Source: a virus (Duplodnaviria > Heunggongvirae > Uroviricota > Caudoviricetes). From it: a DNA stretch of 64,000 nt. A program made the translations under genes and the position numbers. The stretch lies in the IMG/VR virus record IMGVR_UViG_3300026549_000070. One strand, given 5' to 3'. Every line of letters starts with the position of its first letter. Position 1 is the stretch's first letter. Below are positions 15,855-61,018 of the stretch, one piece after another. Under the pieces are notes generated by a model. That model saw nothing but the letters and a program-made list of their open reading frames with translations, was not told the origin of the DNA and did not search any database.

Positions 15855-15893
15855 TTGAACTTTGATTTAGTTTCTTTTATATTATTTTTGTAA
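15855..15893 (+). promoter_or_regulatory. class I conserved promoter (TTGAAC-N17-TATATT with CTTTTATATTATT context)
   Basis: ttgaactttgatttagtttcttttatattatttttg. It diverges from the class II element. Confidence 0.55.
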
Positions 15894-15917
15894 AAAACAA
15901 AAAATAGGAGGATATAT

Positions 15918-16124
15918 ATGAGAGCAGTTGTTAAGGTTATGTTGAAAGACAAAGCAGCAAAAAAGATGTTGTCTGTAAAAGACACACTTGAAGATATGTA
16001 CGGCTTGACCGTATCAAAAACAGGCCGTGTTGTTGAAGGTCTTGCTGAGGATCTTGATGACGCTGGCCAGGCTTATTCTGAAATAAGCGAGGCAATGTAC
16101 AATGGCGACACAGAATACATCTGA
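15918..16124 (+). CDS. hypothetical small early protein (68 aa)
   Basis: RBS aataggaggatatatatg located downstream of a class I promoter. Confidence 0.45.
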   Translation: MRAVVKVMLKDKAAKKMLSVKDTLEDMYGLTVSKTGRVVEGLAEDLDDAGQAYSEISEAMYNGDTEYI

Positions 16125-16473
16125 TGATATAAAGACAGTTGACATTCTTGGGTCAACTTGGACAATCAAATATGTCGATGATGACCCTGCTTTTGAACAA
16201 GCGAATGGTATCACAAATGATGCCGCTCGTGAAATTATCATAGAGAATGTCAAAATGACAGATGATCCTCTTGCGTTTGATATGCAGTCACAGTATATCA
16301 ATCAGAAAAGGGTTCTTCGTCATGAATTGATACACGCGTATCTTTATGAAAGTGGTCTTGGCGACAGTTCAAACAGTTGTGATGCTTGGGCTGTAAATGA
16401 AGAAATGGTTGATTGGTTTGCGAGAAACATTCCTAAAATGCTTGCAACCTTTAAGGAGCTGAAATGCTTGTAG
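16102..16473 (+). CDS. putative zinc metallopeptidase-like protein (HExxH)
   Basis: A single HELIH motif (RHELIHAYLYESG). Confidence 0.3.
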   Translation: MATQNTSDDIKTVDILGSTWTIKYVDDDPAFEQANGITNDAAREIIIENVKMTDDPLAFDMQSQYINQKRVLRHELIHAYLYESGLGDSSNSCDAWAVNEEMVDWFARNIPKMLATFKELKCL

Positions 16474-16727
16474 CGAAAATTGTTTACTTCACTTTCGCAT
16501 TTGGAATGGCTTTAATCGACATCTTTTGGTTTACGCAGAAGTTGTCGCAGCAGAAAGTGTGGAATTATCTTATGGGAGTTTTGGGCTTTCTAAAGTTTTT
16601 GCTTATTGCAATGGACTTTGGTACTGAAAACTTTACACCAAAAATGATTCAGGTTATAACTGAGCCACTGTTCGCAGTTTCTGTAGGACTTTGTGCTTGG
16701 TTCTTGTGGAGGACAAAACACCAATGA
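16464..16727 (+). CDS. small membrane protein
   Basis: Two to three hydrophobic helices. Confidence 0.4.
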   Translation: MLVAKIVYFTFAFGMALIDIFWFTQKLSQQKVWNYLMGVLGFLKFLLIAMDFGTENFTPKMIQVITEPLFAVSVGLCAWFLWRTKHQ

Positions 16728-16927
16728 GATTTATCATACCTTATTTTGCAGGTTCGATTTCAACTGCTTTAATAATCGGATGTGTTCTTGGCGCATCTGA
16801 TCCTAATCAATTTGGAATGGGAATTGCTCTTGCAATCATCATAACGGTTGCCGCAATTATTGCTTGTTTCAAAAGACATAAGCGTAAGCAGAAGGAATAC
16901 TACGACCGCTTTAGGAGCAAGAAATGA
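16691..16927 (+). CDS. small membrane protein
   Basis: Hydrophobic helices followed by a basic C-terminus. Confidence 0.4.
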   Translation: MCLVLVEDKTPMRFIIPYFAGSISTALIIGCVLGASDPNQFGMGIALAIIITVAAIIACFKRHKRKQKEYYDRFRSKK

Positions 16928-17289
16928 TTACAATTAAACATCGCGGAGAAGAATTGACTTCCGCGGAATTGAAAGAGATTTATGACAATCTCTTTATTTC
17001 TGAACATGCTCGTGAAAGACTGCGGGAAAGAGTTCATGTTAATATAAAACAGTTGTTTGAGAGTCCACTTGTTGCATATTTCAATACTGATGGTTCAGTT
17101 AATGTGGCTCTTGATGAATACAATTACTTGGTTGTTCAATACTGTGAACATTTCCAAAATTGGAAGGTTGTTACTTGGAAAGAGAAGTCTTGGAACAGTA
17201 AGACAGTTTTTGACAAGCAGCGAATGGCAAAAGCAGGATACGGACGAAAGGTTAAAAATGAAGATAAGATTTGCGTGCCAAAAGCCTGA
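16924..17289 (+). CDS. hypothetical protein (121 aa)
   Basis: ATGA start overlap with the previous gene. Confidence 0.4.
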   Translation: MITIKHRGEELTSAELKEIYDNLFISEHARERLRERVHVNIKQLFESPLVAYFNTDGSVNVALDEYNYLVVQYCEHFQNWKVVTWKEKSWNSKTVFDKQRMAKAGYGRKVKNEDKICVPKA

Positions 17290-17560
17290 GCAGGAAAAGG
17301 AACTCAAACATATTGTTGAAGTTGAGGCAAAGAAACACTTCAAAAGATGGATTTCTTTGTATGGCAATTTTGGCGGTAAAGTCCCTGGTGTAAAGGAAGA
17401 TCATTTCTGTCTTCAACTCGACATTTGGGACAGTGACTTCTTTGATGATTTGCAGCGGGCAAAGCAGGAAATGTACAAAAACGGCAGAGTTATGCTGCCT
17501 GACTTTTTGTCTGATGTCGAGGATAACTTAAGTTTTGTTTCAAAGGTAGGATGTGTATGA
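17257..17560 (+). CDS. hypothetical protein (~101 aa; start adjusted to an internal ATG with RBS gaaagg)
   Basis: The track ORF 17057..17560 overlaps the previous gene in another frame, so its 5' part is probably not coding. Confidence 0.35.
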
Positions 17561-17787
17561 AAAAGATTTTGATTATTTCATTGGTTGCAGTACTTGCATT
17601 GTTTACAAGTTGTACATACATGTCTGAAAAAGATGATGCCACAGGATACTATAACACTCTTTACAGCGGAAGAGTTTATCACAATCAAATTGTTCTTTTT
17701 AATCAGAATGAAAAGATTCTTGAAAATCAGGAACTCATTATTAAACAGAACGAAGAAATATTGAAGGCATTGAATGAAAAGAATTGA
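17551..17787 (+). CDS. small lipoprotein
   Basis: Signal peptide with lipobox LFTSC. Confidence 0.45.
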   Translation: MCMKKILIISLVAVLALFTSCTYMSEKDDATGYYNTLYSGRVYHNQIVLFNQNEKILENQELIIKQNEEILKALNEKN

Positions 17788-17838
17788 CGACATAAAATAT
17801 GTTATTTCTATGGAAGAAACTTTAAGAAAACTTGGATT

Positions 17839-18351
17839 TTGGAAAGGAGACAAATAATGTACGCACCAAAGATATATGTTACCGTGGGAATCTCGGGAGC
17901 GGGTAAGAGTCATTTTGCAAAAAGATATTGTTCTGCTTTTAACGCGGTTGAACTTAATCTTGACAATTTCCGTAAAAAGATAAGCGGAGACATCTCAAAT
18001 CAGAATGTTACTTTCGAAGCAATTAAGCTTCGTGACAAAGAATTGATTGCCCACTTGGCAGGCGGTCACAATGTAATGATTTCTGATACAAACTTGCACG
18101 CAAAAGGCATTAACGATATTGCGAAAAAGTTTCCTTACAATGATGTTGAAGTTTTCTTTATTACCGACTCAGAAAATGTTCAGCTTTGTAAAGACCGCAT
18201 TGCTGATGATCTTGCAAATAAAGTTGACCGCAGTAATGTACCCGATGAAGTTATTGACCATCAGCACGAAAACTATATGAAGATGATGGACGCAACTTTT
18301 GCTGAAAACGTCCACATTCATTTTGTTGATACAAACGGCAAAGTATCTTAA
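17839..18351 (+). CDS. polynucleotide 5'-kinase-like P-loop kinase (T4 Pnk kinase-domain homolog; stand-alone)
   Basis: P-loop GISGAGKS. An exact ISDTNL motif and the NLDNFRKKI region parallel T4 Pnk (GCPGSGKS, ISDTNL, NRDDYRQSI). Confidence 0.55.
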   Translation: MERRQIMYAPKIYVTVGISGAGKSHFAKRYCSAFNAVELNLDNFRKKISGDISNQNVTFEAIKLRDKELIAHLAGGHNVMISDTNLHAKGINDIAKKFPYNDVEVFFITDSENVQLCKDRIADDLANKVDRSNVPDEVIDHQHENYMKMMDATFAENVHIHFVDTNGKVS

Positions 18352-18379
18352 AAGACTAATTTAATCAATAGGAGTTCGT

Positions 18380-18709: not shown

Positions 18710-18727
18710 ATACTAGGAGTAGCGAAA

Positions 18728-22915: not shown

Positions 22916-23617
22916 ATGAGAAAGATAACGATTTTACCACAAACAACTAAAGATCCTTTACAGCTTATAGGGATAACATCCGCTGTATGTTATAATTCAG
23001 ACACTAGTGATAAAGAAAAGAACATAAAACGCGCATTAGATTGCATACACTCAGGACACGGCAGAGTATTAGAATGGCCGAATGTTGAAGTTATAGTTGA
23101 AGGATTTTCTGCAAAGATGATGAGAGAAGCTATGCGACATATTGTTGGTACAAGTGTTTTGCAAGCATCAACTCGTTACATTGATTATGAAAAAGGATTT
23201 GACGTTATCACCCCACCTGCTATTGCAAACAACAATGATGCAATGGAAGTTTGGTGTAAAGCTATAAGTGACATCAAAATGGCTATGGGTGCATTGAAAG
23301 CTTTGGGCGTTCCTAAAGAAGACTACACTAACTTACTTCCGCTCGCTTATCAGTCAAAAATGATTTGGAAAGTTAACTTAAGAGCTTTAACTCATTTTAT
23401 GAACACAAGAACCTGTTCTCGCGCCTATTGGGAAATCCGTGAGTTTTCGAATATGCTGAAGAAAGCTCTTATGGAATACTCACCTGAATGGGAAATCATT
23501 TGTAAAGAACTTTTCGTTCCTAAGTGTGATGCTGTAGGATACTGTACAGAAGCAAAATGCTGCGGAAGACACAAAACAAAGTCGGAGGTTATTGGTGAAG
23601 ATGTCAAACAAGATTGA
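22916..23617 (+). CDS. thyX: flavin-dependent thymidylate synthase ThyX-like protein (variant motif RHI instead of RHR)
   Basis: HGRVLEWPNVEVIVEGFSAKMMREAMRHIVGTSVLQASTRY aligns to the ThyX core HxSVLEH...RHRxxxxxxxSxRY. NLRALTHFMNTRTCSRAYWEIREF matches the ThyX C-terminal motif. Confidence 0.65.
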   Translation: MRKITILPQTTKDPLQLIGITSAVCYNSDTSDKEKNIKRALDCIHSGHGRVLEWPNVEVIVEGFSAKMMREAMRHIVGTSVLQASTRYIDYEKGFDVITPPAIANNNDAMEVWCKAISDIKMAMGALKALGVPKEDYTNLLPLAYQSKMIWKVNLRALTHFMNTRTCSRAYWEIREFSNMLKKALMEYSPEWEIICKELFVPKCDAVGYCTEAKCCGRHKTKSEVIGEDVKQD

Positions 23618-24709: not shown

Positions 24710-24894
24710 GCCTTATCAACAGACAAACACGAAAGCCCAATGATGTTAATGTTGACCACATCGTTTCAATTTGGTCAGCAGATGACACAACTGGAGTTTG
24801 GGAAGTTACCCGATGCCGTGATGTAAATGGCATTGAATATGAAATGCCTATCCTAAAAGATTTATTTTTACAAAGAGTTGGCATAAAAAATTGA
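24700..24894 (+). CDS. hypothetical small protein (64 aa)
   Basis: ATG overlaps the previous stop (ATGTTCATAA). Confidence 0.3.
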   Translation: MFISLINRQTRKPNDVNVDHIVSIWSADDTTGVWEVTRCRDVNGIEYEMPILKDLFLQRVGIKN

Positions 24895-24930
24895 ACTTTT
24901 TAATTGCTTCTTTTATATTATTATCGTAAC
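24891..24930 (+). promoter_or_regulatory. class I conserved promoter
   Basis: ttgaactttttaattgcttcttttatattattat, followed by the aaaggagcaatttatg RBS and start. Confidence 0.55.
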
Positions 24931-24953
24931 AAACCTGATAAAAGGAGCAATTT

Positions 24954-25292
24954 ATGGAATATACTTCTAGAGCCCAGCTTGTAACACAGATGAAGATCAA
25001 TCTTGAAACACACAAGGATGTTCGCGTACGGGCTTTACTCCGCATTTTTGAAAATCAGACATTTGACGAGCAGAGAACCGAGTCAACAAACCGCTACAAC
25101 GGAATCGGTTTTACAGGTTCTGATGCTCGTTTTCTTTCTTCTCTCGCAAAACAGTACAAATACAAAAAGTTTCTTACTGACAAGCAGGATGCAGTTCTTC
25201 GCAGAAAGATTGTAAAGTATGCTGCACAACTTATCAATGGTTCAATCAATGAAGGCAAAATCCGCTATGTTGACGGAAAATATATTTGGTAG
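24954..25292 (+). CDS. hypothetical early protein (112 aa)
   Basis: Class I cassette upstream. Confidence 0.5.
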   Translation: MEYTSRAQLVTQMKINLETHKDVRVRALLRIFENQTFDEQRTESTNRYNGIGFTGSDARFLSSLAKQYKYKKFLTDKQDAVLRRKIVKYAAQLINGSINEGKIRYVDGKYIW

Positions 25293-26269: not shown

Positions 26270-26488
26270 ATGTTGAATCCGAATGAAATCCCAAAAGCGT
26301 GGGAAAACTTTAAGCAGCTTGAAAGCGGCGTTGCAAAATATCCAACTCTTATTCGTTTCCGTCTTATGGACTTAGTTTACTTTGGAGCAGTTGATAACAA
26401 AGGCAAATATTGGATAAGACGGGCACCAATATCAATAAAAGATCTTACAGGCTGTTCAGCAGCAAAAATTAAGGAGTTGCAAAAATGA
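26270..26488 (+). CDS. hypothetical protein (72 aa)
   Basis: Plus-strand ORF with an AGGAG RBS 17 nt upstream of the ATG (ggaggagtgttaatatacaattatg). Confidence 0.35.
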   Translation: MLNPNEIPKAWENFKQLESGVAKYPTLIRFRLMDLVYFGAVDNKGKYWIRRAPISIKDLTGCSAAKIKELQK

Positions 26489-27183
26489 TTCAGAACTTGG
26501 TATTTTTCAGAAATCACAAAAGAGATAATAATGTATGTTGGGATAACTGTCACGAGTTTGATGACATAACGGATGTTGAAGTTTGGACTCATCACAACGA
26601 AAATGATGATGTTTATGACTTTACAGATGAAGCCGCAAGAGTTTCAAAATTGATTGACGACTTTCCTGAAGCAAACATTATTGGAAGAGTTGACAGTGAT
26701 AAAGGCTTTGGTACAAACATCATTACAATAAATCTTCGTCAGGCAAAAGCTTTCCTTGGAGTTACTGAATCATTGAAGCAGCTTTCAAAATGTACACGCC
26801 TTAAAGTTTGTTGCGTTATTGAAAAGAACGGACGAATCGTTTCCACAGGACTCAACGGCACTCCTTCAGGTTTCAAAAACTGTAGTGAAGTATTTACTCC
26901 TATGGACCGTCTTAAGAAAGATTACAGTACAAGACACCACGAGTTTTCAGAAGCTTATGAAGTTCACGCAGAAATGAATGCTGTTCTCGAACTTGGTAAG
27001 AACAGCTCAATGGACAACTATGATGACTTGACCTTGTACTGTTCAACTTGTCCTTGCCCAGGCTGCGCTAAAATGATTGCACAGGCTGGTATCAAATATG
27101 TGTTCTATCACAATGAATATGATCGTTTACCTGAAGGTGCAAAGCATCTTAAAGAGTTCGGCATTTATGTATTCAAATGTTAG
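26485..27183 (+). CDS. dCMP deaminase (cytidine/deoxycytidylate deaminase family)
   Basis: Zinc-binding motifs VHAEMNAV and TLYCSTCPCPGCAKMI (HAE...PCxxC). Confidence 0.75.
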   Translation: MIQNLVFFRNHKRDNNVCWDNCHEFDDITDVEVWTHHNENDDVYDFTDEAARVSKLIDDFPEANIIGRVDSDKGFGTNIITINLRQAKAFLGVTESLKQLSKCTRLKVCCVIEKNGRIVSTGLNGTPSGFKNCSEVFTPMDRLKKDYSTRHHEFSEAYEVHAEMNAVLELGKNSSMDNYDDLTLYCSTCPCPGCAKMIAQAGIKYVFYHNEYDRLPEGAKHLKEFGIYVFKC

Positions 27184-30040: not shown

Positions 30041-30080
30041 TTGAACTTTCAAATATTTGCTTTTATATTATTACTGTAAA
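30041..30080 (+). promoter_or_regulatory. class I conserved promoter
   Basis: ttgaactttcaaatatttgcttttatattattactg, followed by aaggagcaaattatg. Confidence 0.55.
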
Positions 30081-30101
30081 TCAAACAACAAGGAGCAAAT
30101 T

Positions 30102-30437
30102 ATGGCAAAGGCCCAGTACACCGAAGAACAGTTTAAAGATTTTGGAGACTTCTACGCTTACACTGATGTTTTTGACTGGCATTATGTAAATATCCTTGAA
30201 TGGAAGAATGGAATTGCTCTTGTTGAACTTGAGAACGGTAAGGCAATTTTCAACGGACACAACAACAAAGCTTATTTCTTCGAGGAAGGTAAAGTTCCTG
30301 AAGATTGGATAAAAGATCAGTTTGACAAATGCGCAATCAAATACAGCTGCGCTTATACCGTTGCAAAGATGATTGAAGACAAAGCTTATAATGAGCTTCA
30401 GGAAATCTGGGAAGCAAAAAGAAGAGCTGACTACTAG
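30102..30437 (+). CDS. hypothetical early protein (start adjusted to MAKAQYTEEQ)
   Basis: The class I cassette RBS sits directly before the ATG at 30102. The track start at 30057 lies inside the promoter. Confidence 0.5.
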   Translation: MAKAQYTEEQFKDFGDFYAYTDVFDWHYVNILEWKNGIALVELENGKAIFNGHNNKAYFFEEGKVPEDWIKDQFDKCAIKYSCAYTVAKMIEDKAYNELQEIWEAKRRADY

Positions 30438-32551: not shown

Positions 32552-33382
32552 ATGAGAAAATTTACAGTTGAAGAACCGATTGAGAAAAGTCGTAACAATG
32601 ATGATATCGTTGCAGGATCTTTTCTTTACCCACTTTACAACAAAATTATTAGAAAGGACTTTGTTACCACAGGCACTAATGCTTCACAAACTGCAGGACA
32701 GGAAGCTTATGTTGAGATACTTGCGAAGCAAGTTCAACTTGACCCTTATGCTCCTTACATTTATCTTGACAAAAACTTTCAAACACCAAAGAAGTATGTA
32801 AAATCTGAACTTGACTGGTATAAGTCAATGGACTTAAGTATCATTGGTCACGAAGGAATTGAAAGCAACCCTACTTGGCAGTCGTGTTGTACAAAAGACG
32901 AGAAGAAAGAAATCAACAGTAATTATGGTTGGTGTGTGTTCAGTGAAGAAAATGGCTCACAGTATGACAACTGTCTTGAAGTATTGAAAAAAGACAAGAC
33001 AACAAGAAACGCTATCATTGTGTATAACCGCCCAGAAATCTACAAAGATTACAAGCGCGATGGAATGCACGATATGATATGTACAATGCATTCCCACTTC
33101 TTTATCAGAAACAACAAACTTTATATGATTCACAATATGAGAAGTAACGACATTCGTTATGGCTTCATTTGTTCGGATCTCGCTTGGAATTGTTTCGTTT
33201 ATCAGAATATGTATGAAGACTTGAAATCAACATATCCTGACCTTGAAGTAGGAACAATTATTTGGACAAGTGACTCAATGCATCTTTACTCAAGACACTT
33301 TGATGATCTTAAAAACTTTTTTGAGTCTGAGCGAGAATTCAGAAACTCTATGATAAATCCTTCAGGAGGAGAATACTACTAA
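32552..33382 (+). CDS. ThyA-family pyrimidine C5-modifying enzyme, related to thymidylate synthase and dNMP hydroxymethylases; substrate uncertain, possibly dCMP-specific
   Basis: QYDNCLEVLKKDKTTRNAIIVYNRPEIY...MHDMICTMHSHFFI aligns to the ThyA DQL..VI..LK.NP.SRR.I..AWNP.DL...ALPPCH..CQFYV block; the catalytic Cys is retained. NMRSNDIRYGFICSDLAW aligns to QRSxDxxLGxPFNIASY, and an Asp may replace the Asn177 equivalent. Confidence 0.6.
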   Translation: MRKFTVEEPIEKSRNNDDIVAGSFLYPLYNKIIRKDFVTTGTNASQTAGQEAYVEILAKQVQLDPYAPYIYLDKNFQTPKKYVKSELDWYKSMDLSIIGHEGIESNPTWQSCCTKDEKKEINSNYGWCVFSEENGSQYDNCLEVLKKDKTTRNAIIVYNRPEIYKDYKRDGMHDMICTMHSHFFIRNNKLYMIHNMRSNDIRYGFICSDLAWNCFVYQNMYEDLKSTYPDLEVGTIIWTSDSMHLYSRHFDDLKNFFESEREFRNSMINPSGGEYY

Positions 33383-35932: not shown

Positions 35933-36829
35933 TTAGTTAATATTGATGAACTTCCAATGTAAAGGCTCACCTGTTATAGGATGATGATATGCAAAATTGG
36001 TAATACCCCTTGCTTGAGCAGATATATTACATCCTTTAGCTTTTGGCCCAATCCACTTTGCAGCATCTAATAATGAGTCAAATACTTCATTTGTTTCAAC
36101 ACACATTATTTTCTTTTTTCTGAGTTTACTACTCTTTCTTAGTCCGTTAATTCTTCTTTCAGAGAGTTCTTTATCAGTTTCATATTGCCTTTTCACAATA
36201 AGGGATATTAGCTTTTTATGTTCATCTGAAAGATGTGTTCCTTGTTTAGATTGTGATAATGCTTTTCTAAAATGTTCCTTTTGTTCTTCTGTCATTTTTG
36301 CACATCTTCTTTTTCCACTTTCAGACATTCTTTTCTTCGTATCTTCAGACTTTGGTCTTTTCCCGCCAACGCCTTGTCTTTTATGAATTTCAGCAAGTTC
36401 TTCAGCACTTTTCAAAGACATAGTATGTTTCTGTTTCTCAACTATTGCTTTAAGTTCTTCTGGTGTCTTTCTTGACATAGTCAATTTCTTCTTATTGATT
36501 GAAGCTTGCTTTTCTTCTGGTGTTCTAAATCCTGTAGAAAATTTATGAAAGAAATTACCTAAGTTGTAATTCACATTGGTTTTTGGATTGTATGCTTTAT
36601 CACTTAAAATGCACCAAGTTTCTATAAAAGACGCTTCAAACTCATCATTCGTTTGAAACAAAATGTCGCGTGAAACAAGTCTATCTTCTGGATGATTATG
36701 ATAATAAGATGATGATGTTATGTAGTTATCATTAAGTTTCTTTTGTTTATGAAATCCTACATAAGAATTCCCACTTTGAAATGTTAATTTATAAACATAA
36801 AAGACTGGTGTGACTAATTGATTAGACAT
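35933..36829 (-). CDS. GIY-YIG homing endonuclease with NUMOD-like repeats
   Basis: FYVYKLTFQSGNSYVGF (GIY...YIG) near the N-terminus; C-terminal repeats of the GKRPKSEDTKKRMSES type. Confidence 0.65.
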   Translation of the reverse strand: MSNQLVTPVFYVYKLTFQSGNSYVGFHKQKKLNDNYITSSSYYHNHPEDRLVSRDILFQTNDEFEASFIETWCILSDKAYNPKTNVNYNLGNFFHKFSTGFRTPEEKQASINKKKLTMSRKTPEELKAIVEKQKHTMSLKSAEELAEIHKRQGVGGKRPKSEDTKKRMSESGKRRCAKMTEEQKEHFRKALSQSKQGTHLSDEHKKLISLIVKRQYETDKELSERRINGLRKSSKLRKKKIMCVETNEVFDSLLDAAKWIGPKAKGCNISAQARGITNFAYHHPITGEPLHWKFININ

Positions 36830-38741: not shown

Positions 38742-39198
38742 GTGTTTCCTTTGTTATTATATTATCAAAAGTAAAGATATCTTTCTTAATAAGATTGTAA
38801 GGCAACTTTTCCAACTCCTTTTTATGAATTGAAAAACCTTTATGATATAATTGTGACATTGATTCATCCCACTTAAAGATATACGCTCTTTTATTACCTC
38901 TACCGCAGTCAACACCTAAGATCACATAACACAAGACATTTTTTGCGTGTGAATATGATGCCAAATAGTCATTTTGCCACTCTCTTATATTTTTGAAATT
39001 AAATGCTGACATCTGCTTTAATACCTTAGCTTCCCAGCATACAAAATGAAGTTCATCATTTACTTTACGCATCCCAATCCCATCAAAACACCTTATAGAT
39101 GATTTTGCGCCATATTGAAATCCTGATTCATCTGGTATTTTATAGCCGTCAACTAATGAATGGACTACAATAGTACAAAATCTAGCTTCATTCCACAT
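38656..39198 (-). CDS. hypothetical protein (180 aa), possibly nuclease-like
   Basis: ORF only; no firm motif. Confidence 0.35.
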   Translation of the reverse strand: MWNEARFCTIVVHSLVDGYKIPDESGFQYGAKSSIRCFDGIGMRKVNDELHFVCWEAKVLKQMSAFNFKNIREWQNDYLASYSHAKNVLCYVILGVDCGRGNKRAYIFKWDESMSQLYHKGFSIHKKELEKLPYNLIKKDIFTFDNIITKETLVSIYGESIYDESNVSMSEVPKDLSKEV

Positions 39199-40396
39199 AC
39201 AATAAGTCCTCTCTTAAAATGTTTTTTGTTGACACAACATAATCAACAAATATTTTATAGTCTTTTGACCTCAATATTTTTATGTCGTTATTTTTCATAC
39301 ATTGATATTTTAATTTATATAGCTCGTCACACTCCGGAGACCTGTCCCAAGGATTTATAAAACTTTCGCCGTCAAAAAACATATCGCCTTTTAATTCATA
39401 AAATGTGTCACCTATTAAAAAGTCTGGAAAATATCTATGTTGAATCCCATTACATTCATATATAAAATAAGCTTCTGGTTGATATATAAAGTCAATATCA
39501 AAGTCTTCTAAAAATATGTAGAAGCACACCTCTGGATAAGAATCGAACATAATGTCATTATACACTAACTTTTTCTTTCTCTTTTTATTTATTATAGCCC
39601 ATTCTTCTGGAGTTCTTTTTTGAAGCGTTTCTCGTTGTTTAAGTTTTACACGCTCATTTTTAGCAGGATTCTCAAATCCGTAAGTTTCAATGAAATATTG
39701 CTTTCTGTGTTCAATAACGCTTGGGATTTTGAAATTATGGTCCACATTATATCTCGCTAAAAGAGCGTTTCTCCTTTTTTCAAAAATCTTTTTATCATAC
39801 TCACTATCAGATTCTCTTTTTGCGTTTATTGTTTGTCTGCTTTTATTTTTAATAACCTCTAAAAAATTAGGATCTTTACAATGCTCATAATAAGTTTGCT
39901 TTCTTTTTGCAATAACATCTTGTAAATATGATACATTTGTCACTCCATATTTTTCTAAAAGAGTGTTTTCTCTTGCTTCTTTCATACTGTTATATGCTTC
40001 ATCAATAGATCCATATTTTTTAGTCCAAGTCTCTCTTATTTTTTCTTTGACACTGCTGGCTTGAAATGAGCATTCACATCCATATTTTTCTATGCAAGTT
40101 TTAATACTCTTTTCTTTTACAACTTTTTTATAGTTGTCTAATGATCCATATTTTTCTATGCAAGTTTTAAGTCTCTTCTCATTTTTCACAGCTAAGTCAA
40201 CACTTTTTGCTGAAATCTTCATATTACAAGACTTACACACAAGGCTTTTGAAATTACCTAAAAGTCCCGTATAAGTTTGTCCACATACACTGCAAGTAAA
40301 ACTTACAGTCTGTCTTTGTGGGTAAGTTTGCTTTAACTTATCCACGTCATCAATAGATTTAATAAATATTGGTTCATCAGAAAACTTCTTTTTCAT
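39188..40396 (-). CDS. putative homing endonuclease with an N-terminal zinc finger, tandem ~30-aa xEKYGxxN repeats and a C-terminal PD-(D/E)xK-like nuclease motif
   Basis: CSVCGQ...CKSC. Repeats CIEKYGSLDN / CIEKYGCECS / TKKYGSIDE / LEKYGVTNV / IETYGFENP. C-terminal HRYFPDFLIGDTFYELKG. Confidence 0.4.
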   Translation of the reverse strand: MKKKFSDEPIFIKSIDDVDKLKQTYPQRQTVSFTCSVCGQTYTGLLGNFKSLVCKSCNMKISAKSVDLAVKNEKRLKTCIEKYGSLDNYKKVVKEKSIKTCIEKYGCECSFQASSVKEKIRETWTKKYGSIDEAYNSMKEARENTLLEKYGVTNVSYLQDVIAKRKQTYYEHCKDPNFLEVIKNKSRQTINAKRESDSEYDKKIFEKRRNALLARYNVDHNFKIPSVIEHRKQYFIETYGFENPAKNERVKLKQRETLQKRTPEEWAIINKKRKKKLVYNDIMFDSYPEVCFYIFLEDFDIDFIYQPEAYFIYECNGIQHRYFPDFLIGDTFYELKGDMFFDGESFINPWDRSPECDELYKLKYQCMKNNDIKILRSKDYKIFVDYVVSTKNILREDLLYVE

Positions 40397-41214: not shown

Positions 41215-41232
41215 TTTTACCGAGCGGTAAAA
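41215..41232. promoter_or_regulatory. 18-bp palindrome TTTTACCGagCGGTAAAA (putative operator O1)
   Basis: Perfect 8-bp arms; a second copy lies 50 bp downstream. Confidence 0.45.
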
Positions 41233-41264
41233 TTATACCAAAATACTATACATTTTAAGAAAAA

Positions 41265-41282
41265 TTTTACCGAGCGGTAAAA
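41265..41282. promoter_or_regulatory. second copy of the 18-bp palindrome (putative operator O2)
   Basis: Identical to the 41215 copy. Confidence 0.45.
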
Positions 41283-41298
41283 ATTTTTTGAAAAATAT

Positions 41299-41344
41299 GC
41301 GGACAAATTGAACTTTGTCCGCTTTTCTTTTATATTATTATTGT
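41299..41344 (+). promoter_or_regulatory. class I conserved promoter whose -35 hexamer is embedded in a 9-bp inverted repeat (GCGGACAAA-ttgaac-TTTGTCCGC)
   Basis: gcggacaaattgaactttgtccgcttttcttttatattattattgt. Confidence 0.5.
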
Positions 41345-41440
41345 CTGGTGCTAAACCAGCGTTGAACCGAGGAAGTTCCTCGGGGGATTCGGGGTTTGTA
41401 GGCTGACCCAAGGAGTGGGAAACCTTCGCCATTTTTCAAA
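41345..41440 (+). ncRNA. structured ~100-nt leader or possible small RNA downstream of the regulated promoter
   Basis: Hairpins ccgagg-aagtt-cctcgg and gggattcgggg; GC-rich relative to its surroundings. Confidence 0.25.
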
Positions 41441-42919: not shown

Positions 42920-43298
42920 GGGCGTGAGTAATGGAATCGATTGGCTGAATAGTTCTTTAACATCAGGTAAAGGTGCCGACCTTAATACGGAAAAGAATAA
43001 CTGCAACTAAACGTTCAGTTGTTGCTCGTGGTTCACGCGCAGCTTTCGCTCGCGCTGCCTAAGGCAACACCTAGTTGGACCCTTTGAGGACCAACTGCGA
43101 CTTTCACGACTCAGATAGTGGAATGTTCGTATCGCCCATCTGATAAGTTGAACAAGAGTTGGGTTGCTTGCTCAGTTCAATCGAAAACTGAAAGTAAATA
43201 TGGGTTATGACCGTCCCTACCGTCAATTCGGTTTTAAGCCTGTAAAAAGTGTTATTGGGCAGCAGAGCAAGATTTGGGTTCGACACCCAACACGTCCA
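42920..43298 (+). ncRNA. ssrA: candidate tmRNA (ssrA-like), ~379 nt
   Basis: The 5' end GGGCGUG-AGUAAU-GGAAUCGAUUGG parallels the tmRNA 5' consensus GGGGCUG-AUUCU-GGAUUCGACGGG. AAGGUGC follows, then AAUAACU-GCA (compare the E. coli AAUAGUC-GCA resume context). A 19-codon frame follows (GCA...GCU GCC UAA). The 3' end is a T-arm UUGGG-UUCGACA-CCCAA plus CACGUCC-A that pairs with the 5' end, including a G3:U70 wobble and A73 (Ala identity). Confidence 0.55.
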
Positions 43299-43523
43299 GA
43301 TCCGCTATAAGATGAGATTCGGTTTTGCGGAGCCGACGATTTGAAGTGGACTTATTGTGAGGTTTTATCCGGAGAAACAATTCTCAGAATAAGCTGCGTT
43401 CAAATAACTTTTAATATCGTTTACTAGTATAAAAATGGCTGGCGATATTAAAAGAAACCAATGAATTATAAAAGCCATTTGCTCAATGGATGAAATAGTA
43501 GTTGAAATTGAGCACAAACTTAC

Positions 43524-44243: not shown

Positions 44244-44334
44244 GCGGGTCTGATAAAGGTAGGGGTTAACCGTGACCACTGCGGAGTGTACATATGCTTT
44301 GGTGCTATGGCAGGTTCGAATCCTGCGACCCGCA
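44244..44334 (+). ncRNA. 91-nt tRNA-like element (perfect 7-bp acceptor GCGGGUC/GACCCGC, T-arm GCAGG-UUCGAAU-CCUGC); interior does not fold as a canonical tRNA
   Basis: Perfect acceptor and T-arm; a long interior. Confidence 0.3.
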
Positions 44335-44351
44335 TTATAAATACGAGAATT

Positions 44352-44384
44352 AGGGAAATCTTTCATTGATTTCCCTATTTTTTT
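44352..44384 (+). terminator. rho-independent terminator closing the structured-RNA cluster
   Basis: agggaaatc-tttcattg-atttccct followed by attttttttt. Confidence 0.55.
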
Positions 44385-44424
44385 TTGAACTTTTAATGTA
44401 AGTCTTTTATATTATTTTTGTAAA
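44385..44424 (+). promoter_or_regulatory. class I conserved promoter
   Basis: ttgaacttttaatgtaagtcttttatattatttttg, then aaaggagcaaattatg. Confidence 0.55.
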
Positions 44425-44448
44425 TTAAAAAAATAAAAGGAGCAAATT

Positions 44449-44658
44449 ATGGCAAAACATCCTACAAAAAGAATTGATACTATGAAATGGTTTTGGTATG
44501 TATTGGCGGCTTGCCTTGCAGTTGCACTTGGCTGCTTTGGACACCCTATCTTAGGAGTAATTATTGCTCGTTTGATTTGGTGTATTCCGAATAAAAGAAA
44601 CAGCAAAACTATTGATGCAGAAGAAGTTGAGTACGAGGTACACGATGCAGATGATTAA
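44449..44658 (+). CDS. small membrane early protein (69 aa)
   Basis: Class I cassette; one TM helix. Confidence 0.5.
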   Translation: MAKHPTKRIDTMKWFWYVLAACLAVALGCFGHPILGVIIARLIWCIPNKRNSKTIDAEEVEYEVHDADD

Positions 44659-46764: not shown

Positions 46765-46805
46765 CGAGTTTTTTAGCTATATTGGACAATAATAAATATA
46801 AGAAA
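46765..46805 (+). promoter_or_regulatory. class II conserved promoter-like element (TTTTTTAGCTATATTGGACAATAATAAATA)
   Basis: Shares a 23-nt core with the elements at 54142 (+) and 15820 (-). Confidence 0.45.
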
Positions 46806-46823: not shown

Positions 46824-47171
46824 ATGAATTGTAATGTTGTTTATGAAATAACTGGAATGGATGATGCTCATTCTGTTCCACTTGGACATATCATTGATAT
46901 TGATATGTGGATTTCTCATACTCCTTGGAAAGAAGAATCATATCATTGGCACGGCAATGTTTCTGACAGAAGACATCGCCTGTTTATCAAGTCGTTAGCA
47001 ATGTTGTTGATTGTTTATCAGGAAAGTGTTTGTTTGAAAGACATTAAGAAAATGAGCTCTTATGACATTATCAAAGATTGTGAAAGTATGGACGATTGTG
47101 AAGACTTTACTTATCTTGCACATAGAAGAAGACATAAATTTTCTGATATAAAATTGAACTTTCTTGAATAG
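46824..47171 (+). CDS. hypothetical protein (115 aa)
   Basis: RBS aaggagtattatttattatg. Confidence 0.45.
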   Translation: MNCNVVYEITGMDDAHSVPLGHIIDIDMWISHTPWKEESYHWHGNVSDRRHRLFIKSLAMLLIVYQESVCLKDIKKMSSYDIIKDCESMDDCEDFTYLAHRRRHKFSDIKLNFLE

Positions 47172-47192
47172 TCTTTTATATTATATCTGTAA
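47154..47192 (+). promoter_or_regulatory. class I conserved promoter
   Basis: ttgaactttcttgaatagtcttttatattatatctg, then aaaggagcaaattatg. Confidence 0.55.
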
Positions 47193-47213
47193 ATCACCGA
47201 AAAGGAGCAAATT

Positions 47214-47504
47214 ATGACAGGAAAAATGATACAGAAATGGCTTGATTCACGCACAGATTTTACAGATTATCAGATGAAAACAAAAGACCCTCGCATCGAC
47301 ATCGAGTTTGAGTTTTTTGAAAGAGATGAAATCGGCAATTACATCGAACCTAAAGATCGAACATTTGACCGTGCTGATATTGTTCTTCCTCAGATTGGTG
47401 CAATCTTTCAGGTTGTTCAGAGAGACGGCGAATCTATGGACTCTTTCTTGACAAGAGTTGCAAATAAATACAATAAAATTGAAAAGGGAATGCCTAATGA
47501 TTAA
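47214..47504 (+). CDS. hypothetical early protein (96 aa)
   Basis: Class I cassette. Confidence 0.5.
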   Translation: MTGKMIQKWLDSRTDFTDYQMKTKDPRIDIEFEFFERDEIGNYIEPKDRTFDRADIVLPQIGAIFQVVQRDGESMDSFLTRVANKYNKIEKGMPND

Positions 47505-50344: not shown

Positions 50345-50598
50345 GCGTTTTTGAAAACGAAAAAGTTCCCAATTCTCTGTCTTGTACAGAGCCGCCTGAA
50401 ACTGGAATGTATTTGATACTTGGTACTTCCATCACAGGAAAGACCGAGTTCCAAATCGTTTATTATCGTACTGATACGAAAAAGTTTTATATGAATCTTG
50501 ACTGTCCTAAAGATCGTGACTTATCAGGATTTTGGCGGATTGAAGTAGAAGAATGGATTTTGTTGAAAAAATTGCCAATTTCTGCCTTTGAAAATTGA
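50335..50598 (+). CDS. hypothetical protein (87 aa)
   Basis: ATGGAATTAAG start overlaps the previous stop codon; no separate RBS. Confidence 0.35.
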   Translation: MELSVFENEKVPNSLSCTEPPETGMYLILGTSITGKTEFQIVYYRTDTKKFYMNLDCPKDRDLSGFWRIEVEEWILLKKLPISAFEN

Positions 50599-50641
50599 AC
50601 TTCTTAACGGCGTCTTTTATATTATTACTGTAAAACGCCGT
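50595..50641 (+). promoter_or_regulatory. class I conserved promoter with a 7-bp inverted repeat (ACGGCGT/ACGCCGT) flanking the -10 region
   Basis: ttgaacttcttaacggcgtcttttatattattactgtaaaacgccgt. Confidence 0.5.
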
Positions 50642-50657
50642 AAAGGAGGATTAAATT

Positions 50658-54067: not shown

Positions 54068-54102
54068 GAGAACCTGGGATTCTATTCTCAGGTTCTTTTT
54101 TC
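54068..54102 (+). terminator. rho-independent terminator
   Basis: gagaacctg-ggattctattct-caggttct followed by tttttc. Confidence 0.6.
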
Positions 54103-54136
54103 ATATCATTTAGACAGATTGACAGAAAATGTCAAC

Positions 54137-54180
54137 TTGACTTTTTTAGCTATATTGGACAATATAATAATAAGAATACA
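54137..54180 (+). promoter_or_regulatory. class II conserved promoter-like element
   Basis: cttttttagctatattggacaatataataataag. Confidence 0.45.
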
Positions 54181-54200
54181 AGGATAATTTATTATGATTT

Positions 54201-54240
54201 TTGAACTTTTAATGTAAATCTTTTATATTATTTTTGTAAA
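54201..54240 (+). promoter_or_regulatory. class I conserved promoter, in tandem with the class II element
   Basis: ttgaacttttaatgtaaatcttttatattatttttg. Confidence 0.5.
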
Positions 54241-54297
54241 GGAGCAAATTCGACTTCCTTAAAGAAGTTTGTTAATATTTATACGGAGGTCTCATAA

Positions 54298-55732: not shown

Positions 55733-55835
55733 GAAAAAGACTATCAGAAAGAACATCAGCAGGACCCATCTCGTTTCAAAACATTTTCTTGGGGCTGCCG
55801 CTTGATGTTGAAACATTTAGTAATTGAGGTGACAA

Positions 55836-56132: not shown

Positions 56133-56141
56133 GGAGTCAAT

Positions 56142-57179: not shown

Positions 57180-57203
57180 AAAATTGAAACTTTTAAAATA
57201 AAT

Positions 57204-57240
57204 AAGGCGGGCTTTTTGCTCGCCTTTACTAATTTATAAG
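57204..57240 (+). terminator. possible terminator
   Basis: aaggcgggc-ttttt-gctcgcctt followed by tactaattt (imperfect stem, weak T-run). Confidence 0.3.
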
Positions 57241-57251
57241 AGGATATTTTA

Positions 57252-58439: not shown

Positions 58440-58460
58440 CAGCTTAAAGTGTTAATATAA

Positions 58461-58496
58461 TACCTGTGGCTGTTGCTGCAGGTATTTTTTTTTTGA
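58461..58496 (+). terminator. rho-independent terminator
   Basis: acctgtggc-tgttg-ctgcaggt followed by T10. Confidence 0.55.
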
Positions 58497-58552
58497 AAAT
58501 ATTTAAGAATTTTTTGAACTTTTTCAAACATTCTTTTATATTATTATTGTCA
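58496..58552 (+). promoter_or_regulatory. class I conserved promoter with an extended upstream element; this 54-nt block is repeated exactly at 60965..61018
   Basis: aaaatatttaagaattttttgaactttttcaaacattcttttatattattattgt. Confidence 0.55.
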
Positions 58553-58575
58553 AAAACGTAAACAAGGAGGCAGGT

Positions 58576-58800
58576 ATGACAAAGACAGTAACAGCAACTT
58601 GGAACTTCGATTTGGATGCAGGAAAGGATAAGGGATTTGTTCTTCTTGTAGGTTTCAACAGTGACGGTTCAAAGGGTATTGGATATGGTCTTTGGGATGA
58701 TCACAAAAATGCTTGGTTGTCTGACTCAACTCTTGAGCCGATGCCAAATTTCACTCCTAAAGCTTGGTTGAAAGACGCAACTCTCATTCCTGAGATGTAA
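58576..58800 (+). CDS. hypothetical early protein (74 aa)
   Basis: RBS acaaggaggcaggtatg. Confidence 0.5.
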   Translation: MTKTVTATWNFDLDAGKDKGFVLLVGFNSDGSKGIGYGLWDDHKNAWLSDSTLEPMPNFTPKAWLKDATLIPEM

Positions 58801-58806
58801 TTTTTT

Positions 58807-58879
58807 GGTTCCTTCGAATAACTGGTTAATTCGCGAGCCTCTCAAGCTCGAAAAATGGGTTCAAGCCCCGTAGGAACCA
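58807..58879 (+). tRNA. tRNA-Glu (anticodon CUC)
   Basis: Full cloverleaf by hand: acceptor GGUUCCU/AGGAACC; D stem GAAU/AUUC; anticodon stem CGAGC/GCUCG with loop CUCUCAA; T-arm with UUCAAGC loop. Confidence 0.55.
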
Positions 58880-59008
58880 TATTTGACAACTTCGATGTAG
58901 ATGGCTACACAGAGAACGGGAAATATGAGGAGTTATACTCAACCGCTGGAAGCACCGGATGGTAAAGGCCTGTATATGACGACGCAGGATGAAGTCGATA
59001 CCGTCAAA

Positions 59009-59121
59009 GGAGAACATTAGTTCGAAAGCTCAAAAAGCAGTGCACGGCAAAGTAGAGCAGGGTCTAGAACGCTGGGTGTAGTATGCTCAGAAACTGAGGT
59101 TCGAATCCTCTATGTTCTAAA
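59009..59121 (+). ncRNA. tRNA-like element, 113 nt (acceptor AGAACAU/AUGUUCU plus T-arm); too long for a simple tRNA, so possibly intron-containing
   Basis: Perfect acceptor complementarity flanks the T-arm UGAGG-UUCGAAU-CCUCU. Confidence 0.25.
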
Positions 59122-59179
59122 GGTTGGCAACCAAACCTCTAAGGTTCCATACAAGCAGGAGCAATCTGTAAGGCTTGTT

Positions 59180-59266
59180 AAGTGCGATGAAGGAAAAAGG
59201 TAAGGCTTATACACCCTCTGGGTTGACGCACACTGAGAGCGGGTTCAATTCCCGACTGCACTTATA
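59180..59266 (+). ncRNA. tRNA-like element (T-arm GCGGG-UUCAAUU-CCCGA; acceptor AGUGCGA/CUGCACU with one mismatch)
   Basis: T-arm plus acceptor complementarity; the D arm is unresolved. Confidence 0.25.
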
Positions 59267-59271
59267 CTGAT

Positions 59272-59346
59272 GGTGGAAATTGTTGGATCCGTGAAGTTCG
59301 CAAGGCTGGAGTAACGGCAAGGTTCAAGTCCTTGTTTCACTTATAT
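59272..59346 (+). ncRNA. tRNA-like element (T-arm CAAGG-UUCAAGU-CCUUG; acceptor GGUGGAA/UUUCACU with G-U pairs)
   Basis: T-arm plus acceptor complementarity; interior unresolved. Confidence 0.25.
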
Positions 59347-59351
59347 CTTAC

Positions 59352-59440
59352 TCGGGAGTAAAGAGTAATTGGTACCTCCCCAGACTTTGATTCTGGTGAC
59401 GCATATCAGCGTCGTGCAGGTTCGAATCCCGCCTTCCGAA
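59352..59440 (+). tRNA. type II-like tRNA (long variable-arm hairpin GACGC-auauca-GCGUC) with an anticodon loop reading UUG; two extra nt before the D stem; identity uncertain
   Basis: Acceptor UCGGGAG/CUUCCGA; anticodon stem CCAGA/UCUGG with loop CUUUGAU; T-arm GCAGG-UUCGAAU-CCCGC. Confidence 0.3.
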
Positions 59441-59604
59441 CTAGGAGTTCATTAAACGTCACTATGGGTGAAAGTCCCATCAACCTCGCAGCAGTGATGC
59501 TACTCGTATGGCTTGCAAAAATCGAATGCAGGTAGCGGGGCTGTAGTTTGAGAAAGTAAAACCGGCAAGAACTCTTTCTCCTTACTAATTATTAAGAGGA
59601 CAAT

Positions 59605-60204
59605 ATGATTGAACAAAATGATGCACAAGAATGTTTAGACAGTTTGCTTGATAAGCTTGAGGATGCAGGTATTCCGTGTCCAACACTTTCTATAAATGTT
59701 GTCGACTTTGACTTCACAGGAATGAAAGCAAAGTACAACATTTCAGAAAAAAGTATTTCTGTTTGGAAAAAAGTTTCTAAAGAGGACTTGTCTAAATATG
59801 TTGCACACGAATTATGTCACGCATTTGAAAGATTGAATGGTGTCCCAGTTATTGTAGGCGGCGAACTTTCAGATATGTATGATGTAATCAACACTGACTC
59901 TTTGCGTCATAAGTTTATGAAGTTGATAAGTTTATTCCAAATTCTCTCAAGAGTTTGGACAAGCTTTGAAGCAGCAGAAAATTGCATCGAGAAGCTTGAT
60001 ACACTTATTGATGAGCTTTATGATATTGCCAGCGATGGCGATCCTGAGAACAAAGAGTTCTGCAAAGCTTTCTTTTCAAATTATGATAAGATTTATGACA
60101 GCGTAACTTATTATGCAGATGGCGGTCATAACGAAGATTTCCTTAATTGGAAAGATAAGTTATCAAAATTGTTTGGAATTGAAATTCCTACAGCAGAAGA
60201 CTAA
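59605..60204 (+). CDS. hypothetical protein (199 aa)
   Basis: RBS aagaggacaatatg. Confidence 0.45.
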   Translation: MIEQNDAQECLDSLLDKLEDAGIPCPTLSINVVDFDFTGMKAKYNISEKSISVWKKVSKEDLSKYVAHELCHAFERLNGVPVIVGGELSDMYDVINTDSLRHKFMKLISLFQILSRVWTSFEAAENCIEKLDTLIDELYDIASDGDPENKEFCKAFFSNYDKIYDSVTYYADGGHNEDFLNWKDKLSKLFGIEIPTAED

Positions 60205-60446
60205 AAATATGTTAATATAAAAATACGAAAAATAAATTACCACTCTTACATTTTTTAAGAGTGGTACTAATTGAAATATATTAAGGAAGGGTTATTAAAA
60301 ATGACTTCATTGTATTCATTGACAGCAGAAGTTCTCACAACAAGATCATTATTGAATAATGATGTTAGAACTGCTATCACTACAGATGAATACGATTATA
60401 ATGAAGAAGATACGAGGTTGCCTTAGAGAACTGAGAAATGTTTCCC

Positions 60447-60484
60447 TGAGGCAAACCGATGAAGGTTTGCCTTTTTTGTTTTAT
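60447..60484 (+). terminator. rho-independent terminator
   Basis: gaggcaaacc-gatgaa-ggtttgcct followed by tttttgtttt. Confidence 0.6.
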
Positions 60485-60513
60485 ACAAAAATTGCAAAAA
60501 AAATAAAAATTTT

Positions 60514-60550
60514 TGAACTTTGAAAAAACTTCTTTTATATTATTATTGTC
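60514..60550 (+). promoter_or_regulatory. class I conserved promoter
   Basis: ttgaactttgaaaaaacttcttttatattattattgt. Confidence 0.55.
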
Positions 60551-60584
60551 AAAACGCAATATTGTTTTTATAAAGGAGTAAAAC

Positions 60585-60893
60585 ATGAAAACAATTCATT
60601 TGGAAAACATTAAAAAAATTGATGGTAAGCCTTGCAAAATTATTTACAATGGAGCTTGTGCTTTTGAAATTGATGTCGATTATATGGACGGCAGACGAAA
60701 CCTTAATTATATCATCAATAAAATCTGTGAAACCAATACAGAAACTTTTGTTATTCGTCCAGGAGACAAAATTATTTCTGATGGTAAAACAGGCGAAATT
60801 GTAAAATACAGTGATTTTGCATACGGCATCGATTATGAGGACGGCAAATCAGGTGATTTTGAGTTTTTACCTGAATGTTTCAAGATACTTTAA
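60585..60893 (+). CDS. hypothetical early protein (102 aa)
   Basis: RBS taaaggagtaaaacatg. Confidence 0.5.
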   Translation: MKTIHLENIKKIDGKPCKIIYNGACAFEIDVDYMDGRRNLNYIINKICETNTETFVIRPGDKIISDGKTGEIVKYSDFAYGIDYEDGKSGDFEFLPECFKIL

Positions 60894-60921
60894 TTGCTCC
60901 TTATAATTTGTTGTTCTTAAG

Positions 60922-60960
60922 CTCGAGAAACGAGAAAACTTATTTCTCGAGTTAATTATT
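60922..60960 (+). terminator. probable terminator
   Basis: ctcgagaaa-cgagaaaacttat-tttctcgag followed by ttaattatt. Confidence 0.4.
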
Positions 60961-60964
60961 GACA

Positions 60965-61018
60965 AAAATATTTAAGAATTTTTTGAACTTTTTCAAACAT
61001 TCTTTTATATTATTATTG
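60965..61018 (+). promoter_or_regulatory. class I conserved promoter (exact 54-nt repeat of 58496..58549) driving the downstream tRNA array
   Basis: Identical 54-mer; the first tRNA begins ~50 nt downstream. Confidence 0.55.

Follow-up and report, generated by a model that had tools for sequence, protein, structure and literature searches.

The 64,000-nucleotide stretch of the virus record IMGVR_UViG_3300026549_000070 that was analysed here (the window) carries twelve sites of a short recurrent element, TTGAAC-N17-TATATT, which we term class I. Based on the anatomy of these sites and their occurrence in related phages and in bacteria, we propose that they are strong sigma-70-family promoters that head transcription units, are read by the polymerase of a Treponema host and are organised like the promoter-early stem-loops (PeSLs) known from T4-type phages. 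Judged from sequence, this proposal is likely, though by no means certain, to be correct.

Recurrence and conservation of class I

A pattern scan of the window found 11 exact matches to TTGAAC-N17-TATATT, all on the + strand, at 15855, 24891, 30041, 41308, 44385, 47154, 50595, 54201, 58514, 60513 and 60983, against 0.02 expected from dinucleotide-preserving shuffles. The recurrent element described in an earlier note on this DNA is thus confirmed; eight of the coordinates given there are correct, and the last three had each been placed one position too high. An extended pattern with mismatches allowed revealed a twelfth, degenerate copy at 7423, in which the -35 reads TAGAACTT. Its orthologues in two related contigs read TTGAACTT, indicating that the window copy carries a -35 substitution. 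Copies lie every 3-9 kb along the window and throughout a syntenic 259-kb relative (IMGVR_UViG_3300021255_004000), apart from gaps of 9-15 kb in places.

The class I frame consists of TTGAACTT, 11 largely variable bases, CTTTTATATTAT, N3 and TGT, usually followed by AA. In the alignment about 25 positions are fixed within this 40-bp frame, and the flanks and spacers are unrelated among copies. The near-invariant cassette of ~65 bp that had been claimed is therefore reduced to a conserved part of ~40 bp, and the longer string CTTTTATATTATT(A/T)TTGT holds in seven of the 11 copies, the others reading TATCGT, TACTGT or ATCTGT. Conservation was measured on 45 non-redundant copies pooled from the window and related contigs. 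Positions that had not been used for selection turned out to be conserved, with T+8 at 78%, T+18 at 91% and T-G-T-A-A around the predicted start at 87-96%, and 9-10 spacer positions between the conserved blocks are close to random, carrying almost no information. A near-random spacer beside conserved positions indicates that the conservation reflects constraint, not recent copying. Upstream of the frame, A-tracts and T-tracts alternate with a period of ~10 bp in the same set, as in UP-element-like or curved regions.

Predicted start sites, leaders and stem-loops

A G, the predicted start, lies exactly 7 nt past the TATATT hexamer in all 12 window copies and is found at this position in 96% of the 45 non-redundant copies. 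The hexamers follow the sigma-70 scheme of TTGnnn and TAnnnT separated by 17±1 bp, here a 17-bp spacer (TTGAAC in 11 copies, TAGAAC in the twelfth), and the G at 7 nt falls in the range of 6-8 nt past the -10 hexamer where a purine start is expected for sigma-70. In the public-record gene calls, each copy immediately precedes the start of a gene, or the tRNA array, and points in the same direction; the site is intergenic and co-oriented with the genes in 12 of 12 window copies and in 33 of 33 copies of the 259-kb relative.

Seven of the 12 copies are followed by an A-rich leader of 25-29 nt that ends in a GGAG Shine-Dalgarno (SD) sequence and ATG. The ribosome-binding-site (RBS) string AAAGGAGCAAATTATG, reported earlier behind most copies, follows only four of them with at most one mismatch (24941, 30089, 44436 and 47201), and a truncated remnant follows a fifth (54238-54250); the SD sequences of the remaining protein-coding copies differ from it. 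The exact string is absent elsewhere in the window, which makes it specific to promoter-proximal genes.

Terminator-like hairpins with T-runs were found just upstream of the copies at 44385, 58514, 60513 and 60983, and of the pair formed at 54201 by class I and a second motif, class II (see below). Within 70-80 nt, a local hairpin of -10 kcal/mol or lower is present at 46% of 52 copies versus 13% of shuffles. The hairpins are of three kinds by position: upstream of the promoter, enclosing the -35, or enclosing the -10 and +1.

The promoter reading of the earlier note is well supported by this sequence anatomy, namely the -35/-10 pair with its 17-bp spacer, the invariant G, the phased A/T tracts and the co-orientation with genes. 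It is also backed by the short leader to the SD, the upstream terminators and the same motif before Treponema genes, all of which are consistent with promoter function. The labels early, host-takeover and anti-defence, by comparison, find no support in anything in the sequence analysis. The temporal class of class I is probably early or constitutive; when ten large opposite-strand open reading frames (ORFs) of the relative were compared with PHROGs, nine were unmatched and one fell into an exonuclease family, and gene content gave no temporal class.

In the mechanism that we propose, the host RNA polymerase (RNAP) holoenzyme would bind TTGAAC(TT) as the -35 and TATATT as the -10 across the 17-bp spacer, with the phased upstream A/T tracts aiding binding. 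Transcription would begin at the invariant G, 7 nt past the -10 hexamer, and in most units would pass through the 25-29 nt A-rich leader into a strong SD. Many copies are fused to a stem-loop, which may be an upstream intrinsic terminator or a hairpin around the -35 or the -10/+1, so that each cassette would end the preceding unit and start the next. Since the same ~20-40 bp recur every 3-9 kb, the copies could also serve as sites of homologous exchange.

Gene gain and loss at class I sites

The stretches 58496-58550 and 60965-61019 are identical over 55 nt, not 54 nt as first reported. In the 259-kb relative a single promoter stands between the terminator and the tRNA leader, and the segment 60550-61019 is absent, whereas the window has a promoter, a gene, a terminator and a second promoter at this place; the suggested origin of the 58496/60965 pair by recent duplication or recombination is supported by this comparison. 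The order in the window is promoter 60513, whose upstream flank and spacer are the resident ones, a new leader and a 102-aa ORFan, a terminator-like hairpin, and promoter 60983, which is identical over 55 nt to promoter 58514 and then continues into the resident tRNA leader. The first 12 nt of the new leader equal those of the 58514-type leader in the relative. The arrangement fits the product expected of a single crossover between the resident promoter and a circle that would have carried one promoter and one gene. Two further indels between the phages concern small genes that are present or absent immediately after promoters 15855 and 54201, and the truncated RBS at 54238-54250 points to the deletion of a small gene still kept by the relative.

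Homology breaks between related contigs were then compared between class I sites and other same-strand gene starts. Breaks occur at 36% of the former and 27% of the latter (odds ratio 1.57, p=0.06). A two-fold excess, obtained with points 1.2-2 kb away as the control, was lost under this fairer gene-start control. With one clean case, the argument for a role of class I in recombination is weak, and this part of the proposal has both points to its disadvantage. As for the earlier idea that genes are swapped under a fixed expression signal, the clear case at 60513/60983 and the two promoter-proximal small-gene indels agree with it, but a general enrichment of breakpoints is not significant.

The promoter-bounded insertion, the 55-nt identical pair and the palindromes around the -35 in some copies could also be taken to mean that the repeats are recombination or mobility sites, or sites for DNA-organising or replication proteins, and that their resemblance to promoters is incidental. 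This is very unlikely, as the 12 window copies and 33 copies of the relative are all co-oriented with genes, keep a fixed distance to the SD and start codon and have terminators upstream, and as breakpoints are not significantly enriched at them.

The phage and its probable host

The window is part of the 159,946-bp contig ENA ERZ27252065:k141_365900. Neither a megablast search of 50,697 phage records with 8 kb of window sequence nor tblastn with the 1858-aa ORF gave a match. The window helicase is 45% identical to the helicase of Bacillus phage G, and the source is an uncultivated ruminant-gut jumbo phage distantly related to this phage. The relative, with ~82-96% nucleotide identity over aligned blocks, carries its 33 class I copies on one strand along the whole contig; among its gene products are a microbial PARG, RecA, an NAD-dependent ligase and a ferritin-like protein. 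The other IMG/VR contigs that bear multiple copies are for the most part close relatives too (median protein identity over shared ORFs 72-100%). An argument for a dedicated transcription factor from conservation across divergent phages was dropped, because the motif-bearing contigs are mostly close relatives.

The exact 20-base pattern was found at 22 loci across one genome each of 185,579 species. Twelve of the 22 belong to genomes of Treponema, Treponemataceae or Spirochaetales, including the isolate Treponema sp. C6A8. By a base-composition estimate, about 10 matches would be expected by chance in the whole collection, which equals the number of scattered non-spirochaete matches, so that the spirochaete matches represent a large excess. 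At four of these loci an orthologous 150-aa gene has its SD and ATG 34 nt downstream of the motif; the spacers differ among the three species with differing sequences (L054 and L060 are identical), and the predicted +1 is a purine in each host copy. In at least five Treponema genomes a repeated leader with the hairpin GTCGGCAGCNNGACTGCCGC also follows the motif. This leader gives full-length TD-1 matches below the Rfam threshold (~30 bits against a cut-off of 64.5) and has weak TD-1/TD-2 similarity. Up to three such leaders lie within 8 kb at the leader loci (L049 from Treponema sp. C6A8, L055, L059, L061, L066 and L067), between accessory genes such as a PD-(D/E)XK transposase-like gene and DUF1848, and the whole looks like a cassette array.

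None of 653 phage ORFs has a homologue in the Treponema motif loci, which argues against these loci being pieces of this phage. A FlaB-like flagellin (MVINHNMSS...) and a protein with a spirochaete FlaA outer-layer domain are encoded by the 259-kb relative (L014 4470-5321 on the - strand and another ORF). Together with the motif matches, these genes suggest that the host is probably a ruminant-gut Treponema. Our literature searches found neither a TTGAAC promoter of Treponema nor a Treponema jumbo phage.

The polymerase proposed to read class I

The simplest reading of these data is that the Treponema polymerase recognises the class I motif. Several observations weigh against it. Compared with the textbook TTGACA/TATAAT, the hexamers agree at 9 of 12 positions, a score equalled by dozens of chance sites in the window, where generic sigma-70-like sites show at most weak enrichment; non-consensus as they are, the class I hexamers yet never vary. 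C-16, the T-run before the -10 and TGTAA after the +1 are not standard sigma-70 contacts. The Treponema motif sites precede accessory-type genes and the repeated leader, not housekeeping genes, and the motif could accordingly be that of a special regulon instead of a primary-sigma signal. In addition, the scan for sigma and RNAP domains, which found none in the 85 window ORFs and 102 further ORFs of the relative, covered neither ~94 kb of the relative nor ~96 kb of the source contig.

These features would be explained if a dedicated factor helped to read the motif, such as a phage sigma, a MotA/AsiA-like -35 replacement or a host alternative sigma, making class I a middle or special class. In favour of such a factor are the ~25 near-invariant positions, including C-16TTT and TGTAA, that sigma-70 does not normally specify, the 9/12 hexamers that never drift to TTGACA/TATAAT, the accessory character of the host sites, and the second conserved motif class, which implies a phage with more than one transcription signal. 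The -35 GAACTT also resembles -35 elements of the extracytoplasmic function (ECF) type, but the CGT-like -10 of that type is absent. When the consensus sequences of ECF, sigma-28, sigma-54 and sigma-32 promoters were considered, GAAC was found in the -35 and none fitted the -10, TATATT. The sigma-70 determinants are, on the other hand, all present (TTG, TAnnnT, the 17-bp spacer and a purine 7 nt downstream), and the motif occurs in Treponema genomes without phage genes, so it would have to be readable in uninfected cells, or those sites would be silent. No sigma, RNAP or activator domain was seen in the 187 ORFs, and a segment of B. subtilis SigA, run with phmmer against the 653 ORFs, returned nothing, a weak negative. 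In T4 middle promoters a MotA box centred at -30 takes the place of the -35, with MotA and AsiA supplied by the phage; here MotA and AsiA were not among the Pfam families listed in general ORF scans, in which no search was aimed at them. On balance a dedicated factor is a minor possibility, with a modest chance of being correct.

A narrower form of the idea is that the invariant extra positions (TTGAACTT, C-16TTT and TGTAA) are where a dedicated factor acts, one common to the phage and the TD-1-like accessory units of Treponema. We regard this as distinctly unlikely. If it were true, the phage would have borrowed a multi-copy cassette promoter of the host, or the host cassettes would fire on infection from a promoter of phage type, and the motif would define a spirochaete regulon so far undescribed.

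Class I might also represent early promoters for a virion-packaged phage RNAP of the AR9/phiKZ type. Like the early promoters of those phages, which are likewise AT-rich and almost invariant, the motif contains TATATTAT and then a conserved G start, the AR9 early consensus being AAATATATATTAT-(6N)-G+1 (PMC5312081), and the giant window ORFs of 1858 and 1372 aa have no recognisable domains. The AR9/phiKZ promoters, however, have no -35 and need a phage multisubunit RNAP (PMC5312081), whereas class I has an invariant -35 at 17 bp, and its G lies 5 nt past TATATTAT, not 7. No RNAP domain was found in the 187 ORFs scanned, no DxDGD motif in window ORFs larger than 300 aa, the two giant ones included, and no match in PDB sequence searches with these two. 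Phage G, the nearest cultured relative, belongs to a group of jumbo phages reported to be without RNAP and sigma factors (PMC7824862), and the motif is also present in bacterial genomes. Use of class I by a virion polymerase is accordingly a far-fetched option with a very small chance of being correct, and recognition by the Treponema polymerase is retained as the preferred reading.

Putative transcription units headed by class I

The class I sites of the window and their associated features are as follows.

7423-7462, + strand: class I with degenerate -35 TAGAACTT; +1 G at 7458, the SD starting at +1; by gene calls the unit contains an 85-aa ORFan (7471), a leucine-rich repeat (LRR) protein and a helicase.
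15855-15894, + strand: class I; +1 G at 15890; 28-nt leader to a 68-aa ORFan (15918); diverges from a minus-strand class II motif at 15840.
24891-24930, + strand: class I; +1 G at 24926; 28-nt leader; RBS string AAAGGAGCAATTTATG at 24941-24956, then a 112-aa gene (24954).
30041-30080, + strand: class I, its -35 set within a palindrome; +1 G at 30076; the RBS string at 30089-30104 serves a 111-aa ORFan (30102); the unit reaches ThyA-like, DnaC-like and DnaB genes.
41299-41347, + strand: class I 41308, its -35 forming the loop of a 9-bp terminator-like hairpin (41299-41322); 111-nt leader to a 66-aa ORFan (41454).
44351-44424, + strand: terminator-like hairpin and T-run (44351-44377), directly followed by class I 44385; RBS string at 44436-44451; 69-aa membrane ORFan (44449).
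47154-47193, + strand: class I, which overlaps the stop codon of the gene before it; RBS string at 47201-47216; 96-aa ORFan (47214).
50595-50645, + strand: class I with a stem, ACGGCGT/ACGCCGT, that brackets the -10 and +1; 97-aa ORFan (50658).
54068-54250, + strand: composite region of a terminator (54068-54097), class II (54144-54163) and class I (54201-54240); truncated RBS remnant AAAGGAGCAAATT at 54238-54250; heads an RNA ligase gene (54298).
58459-58553, + strand: terminator (58459-58486) and class I 58514; heads a 74-aa ORFan, tRNA-Glu(ctc) and tRNA-Gln.
60448-60552, + strand: terminator (60448-60473) and class I 60513; left copy flanking the inserted gene.
60550-61019, + strand: segment with a leader, the 102-aa ORFan (60585-60893), a terminator-like hairpin (60931-60949) and a promoter of the 58514 type (60983).
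60983-61022, + strand: class I at the head of the tRNA array; +1 G at 61018, 47 nt before tRNA-Glu (61065).

The first genes of ten units encode proteins of 66-112 aa that have no Pfam match and are mutually non-paralogous; one of the ten matches a PHROG family of unknown function and the other nine match none. The earlier description of small, unrelated downstream proteins is true of these first genes, but the units continue into large replication and metabolic genes, running on into a helicase, an LRR protein, ThyX, an ATP-grasp protein, dCMP deaminase, ThyA-like, DnaC-like and DnaB proteins and an RNA ligase. Class I sites are general operon-head signals in a region of replication and nucleotide metabolism, not a small-gene device.

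The copy at 60983 precedes tRNAs, as had been noted, with tRNA-Glu at 61065. The array that begins there holds ~24 tRNAs and extends past the end of the window, and the next class I copy after 60983 lies just before the gene of a CCA-adding enzyme. Beyond the window end, the tRNA array is followed by genes for the CCA-adding enzyme, a NUDIX hydrolase, an acetyltransferase and a lytic transglycosylase (L070 7965-15471). An extra tRNA at 62740-62812 was called by Rfam and not by ARAGORN, and T-arm-like sequences (GGTTCGAATCC) at 44295-44337 and 61185-61227 were called tRNA by neither tool.

A possible phage tmRNA at 42920-43301 on the + strand sits in an ORF-free stretch inside the unit headed by 41308; it gives a full-length match of 40.2 bits against an Rfam cut-off of 47 (E=3e-14 in a 1.5-kb search) and no ARAGORN call. 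The long leader of 41308 was considered as a structured RNA and rejected, its fold being no better than that of shuffles (z=-0.36) and its Rfam matches at chance level only. Just upstream of 41308, an operator-like 18-bp palindrome, TTTTACCGAGCGGTAAAA, occurs twice (41216-41233 and 41266-41283), 50 bp apart.

ThyX (22916-23617), a dCMP deaminase (26485-27183) and a divergent ThyA-like protein (32552-33382, E=1e-12) are encoded by this one phage. The last of these might act as a pyrimidine hydroxymethylase and would then be a hint of modified DNA. Homing-endonuclease-like genes on the - strand at 35936-36829 and 39191-40396 interrupt the otherwise plus-strand region, and the second of them holds four tandem repeats of 66-69 nt at 39943-40184.

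Class II and other repeats

The class II motif, ACTTTTTTAGCTATAT(T/G)GGACAAT, occurs in the window at 46771-46790 (+), 54144-54163 (+) and 15840-15821 (-) and has no -35-like partner. Twenty-three copies were found in phage loci, 12 of these 50-59 nt upstream of class I, and none in the Treponema loci. The copy at 15840, which diverges from class I, faces a minus-strand gene cluster. Class II may represent another type of promoter. The inverted repeat TTGACAGAAAATGTCAA, preceded by GACAGA, adjoins several class II motifs on their upstream side (54112-54136 in the window; also in L013, L014, L022, L030, L040 and L046). A third motif, TTTGTTAATATTT (32525 and 54268), was discarded as it does not exceed chance, with 14 found and 10.6 expected.

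Implications

Class I gives a transcription map for an uncultivated jumbo phage, with operon heads, likely starts and terminators. With it the PeSL design of T4-like phages is carried over to an unrelated lineage and host phylum, and a probable host can be assigned from a regulatory signal, through a promoter motif enriched in Treponema and spirochaete flagellar genes in the relative. Class I may also be a strong portable promoter for spirochaete genetics, a field with few characterised promoters. No new mechanism is revealed; the class comprises conserved phage promoters in PeSL-like cassettes, and the added value is the Treponema link.

Comparison with known systems

Class I resembles the host-sigma-dependent early promoters of the large lytic phages T4, SPO1 and T5, which likewise comprise many copies of a strong -35/-10 promoter with upstream A/T tracts, conserved beyond the level of host promoters and placed before small genes without known function. 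Class I differs from them in its -35, TTGAACTT, and in the invariant C and T-run before the -10, which is not a TG extended -10. The TD-1-like units of Treponema carry the identical TTGAACTT-N11-CTTTTATATTAT motif, but they are bacterial and not of phage origin. The TD-1 and TD-2 motifs were described by Weinberg et al. (2007, PMC1950547), where no TD-1 promoter is described.

The PeSLs are cassettes of the T4-type phages phi1, RB49, PST and nt-1, and recombination between copies yields indels and mini-circles (Arbiol et al. 2010, PMC2839356; Comeau et al. 2014, PMC4122927). Class I differs from them in several respects. The lineage here is that of a phage G-like jumbo phage, not a T4-like one, and the probable host phylum is Spirochaetota. 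The promoter is a fixed, non-textbook variant with extra invariant positions. Class I copies run through the window and the 259-kb relative and may not be concentrated in hyperplastic regions as PeSLs are. The enrichment of breakpoints at class I is weak (p=0.06), and the promoter and terminator activities of the class I cassettes are predicted ones.

The likeness lies in the design. Class I cassettes have the same order of parts, in which an upstream stop codon is followed by an AT-rich region, a sigma-70-like -35/-10 pair, a stable stem-loop at a variable position relative to the promoter, and an SD and start codon, usually of an ORFan. The sites of PeSL stem-loops (upstream, around the -35, around the -10 and just downstream) are matched by the hairpin subclasses of class I (PMC2839356). 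In both systems there are tens of copies per genome. Indels from recombination between copies, as in PeSLs, may have occurred here too, the 60513/60983 structure being as predicted by the PeSL mini-circle model. On these features of sequence, the putative organisation of the class I cassettes is PeSL-like, a design already known from T4-type phages.

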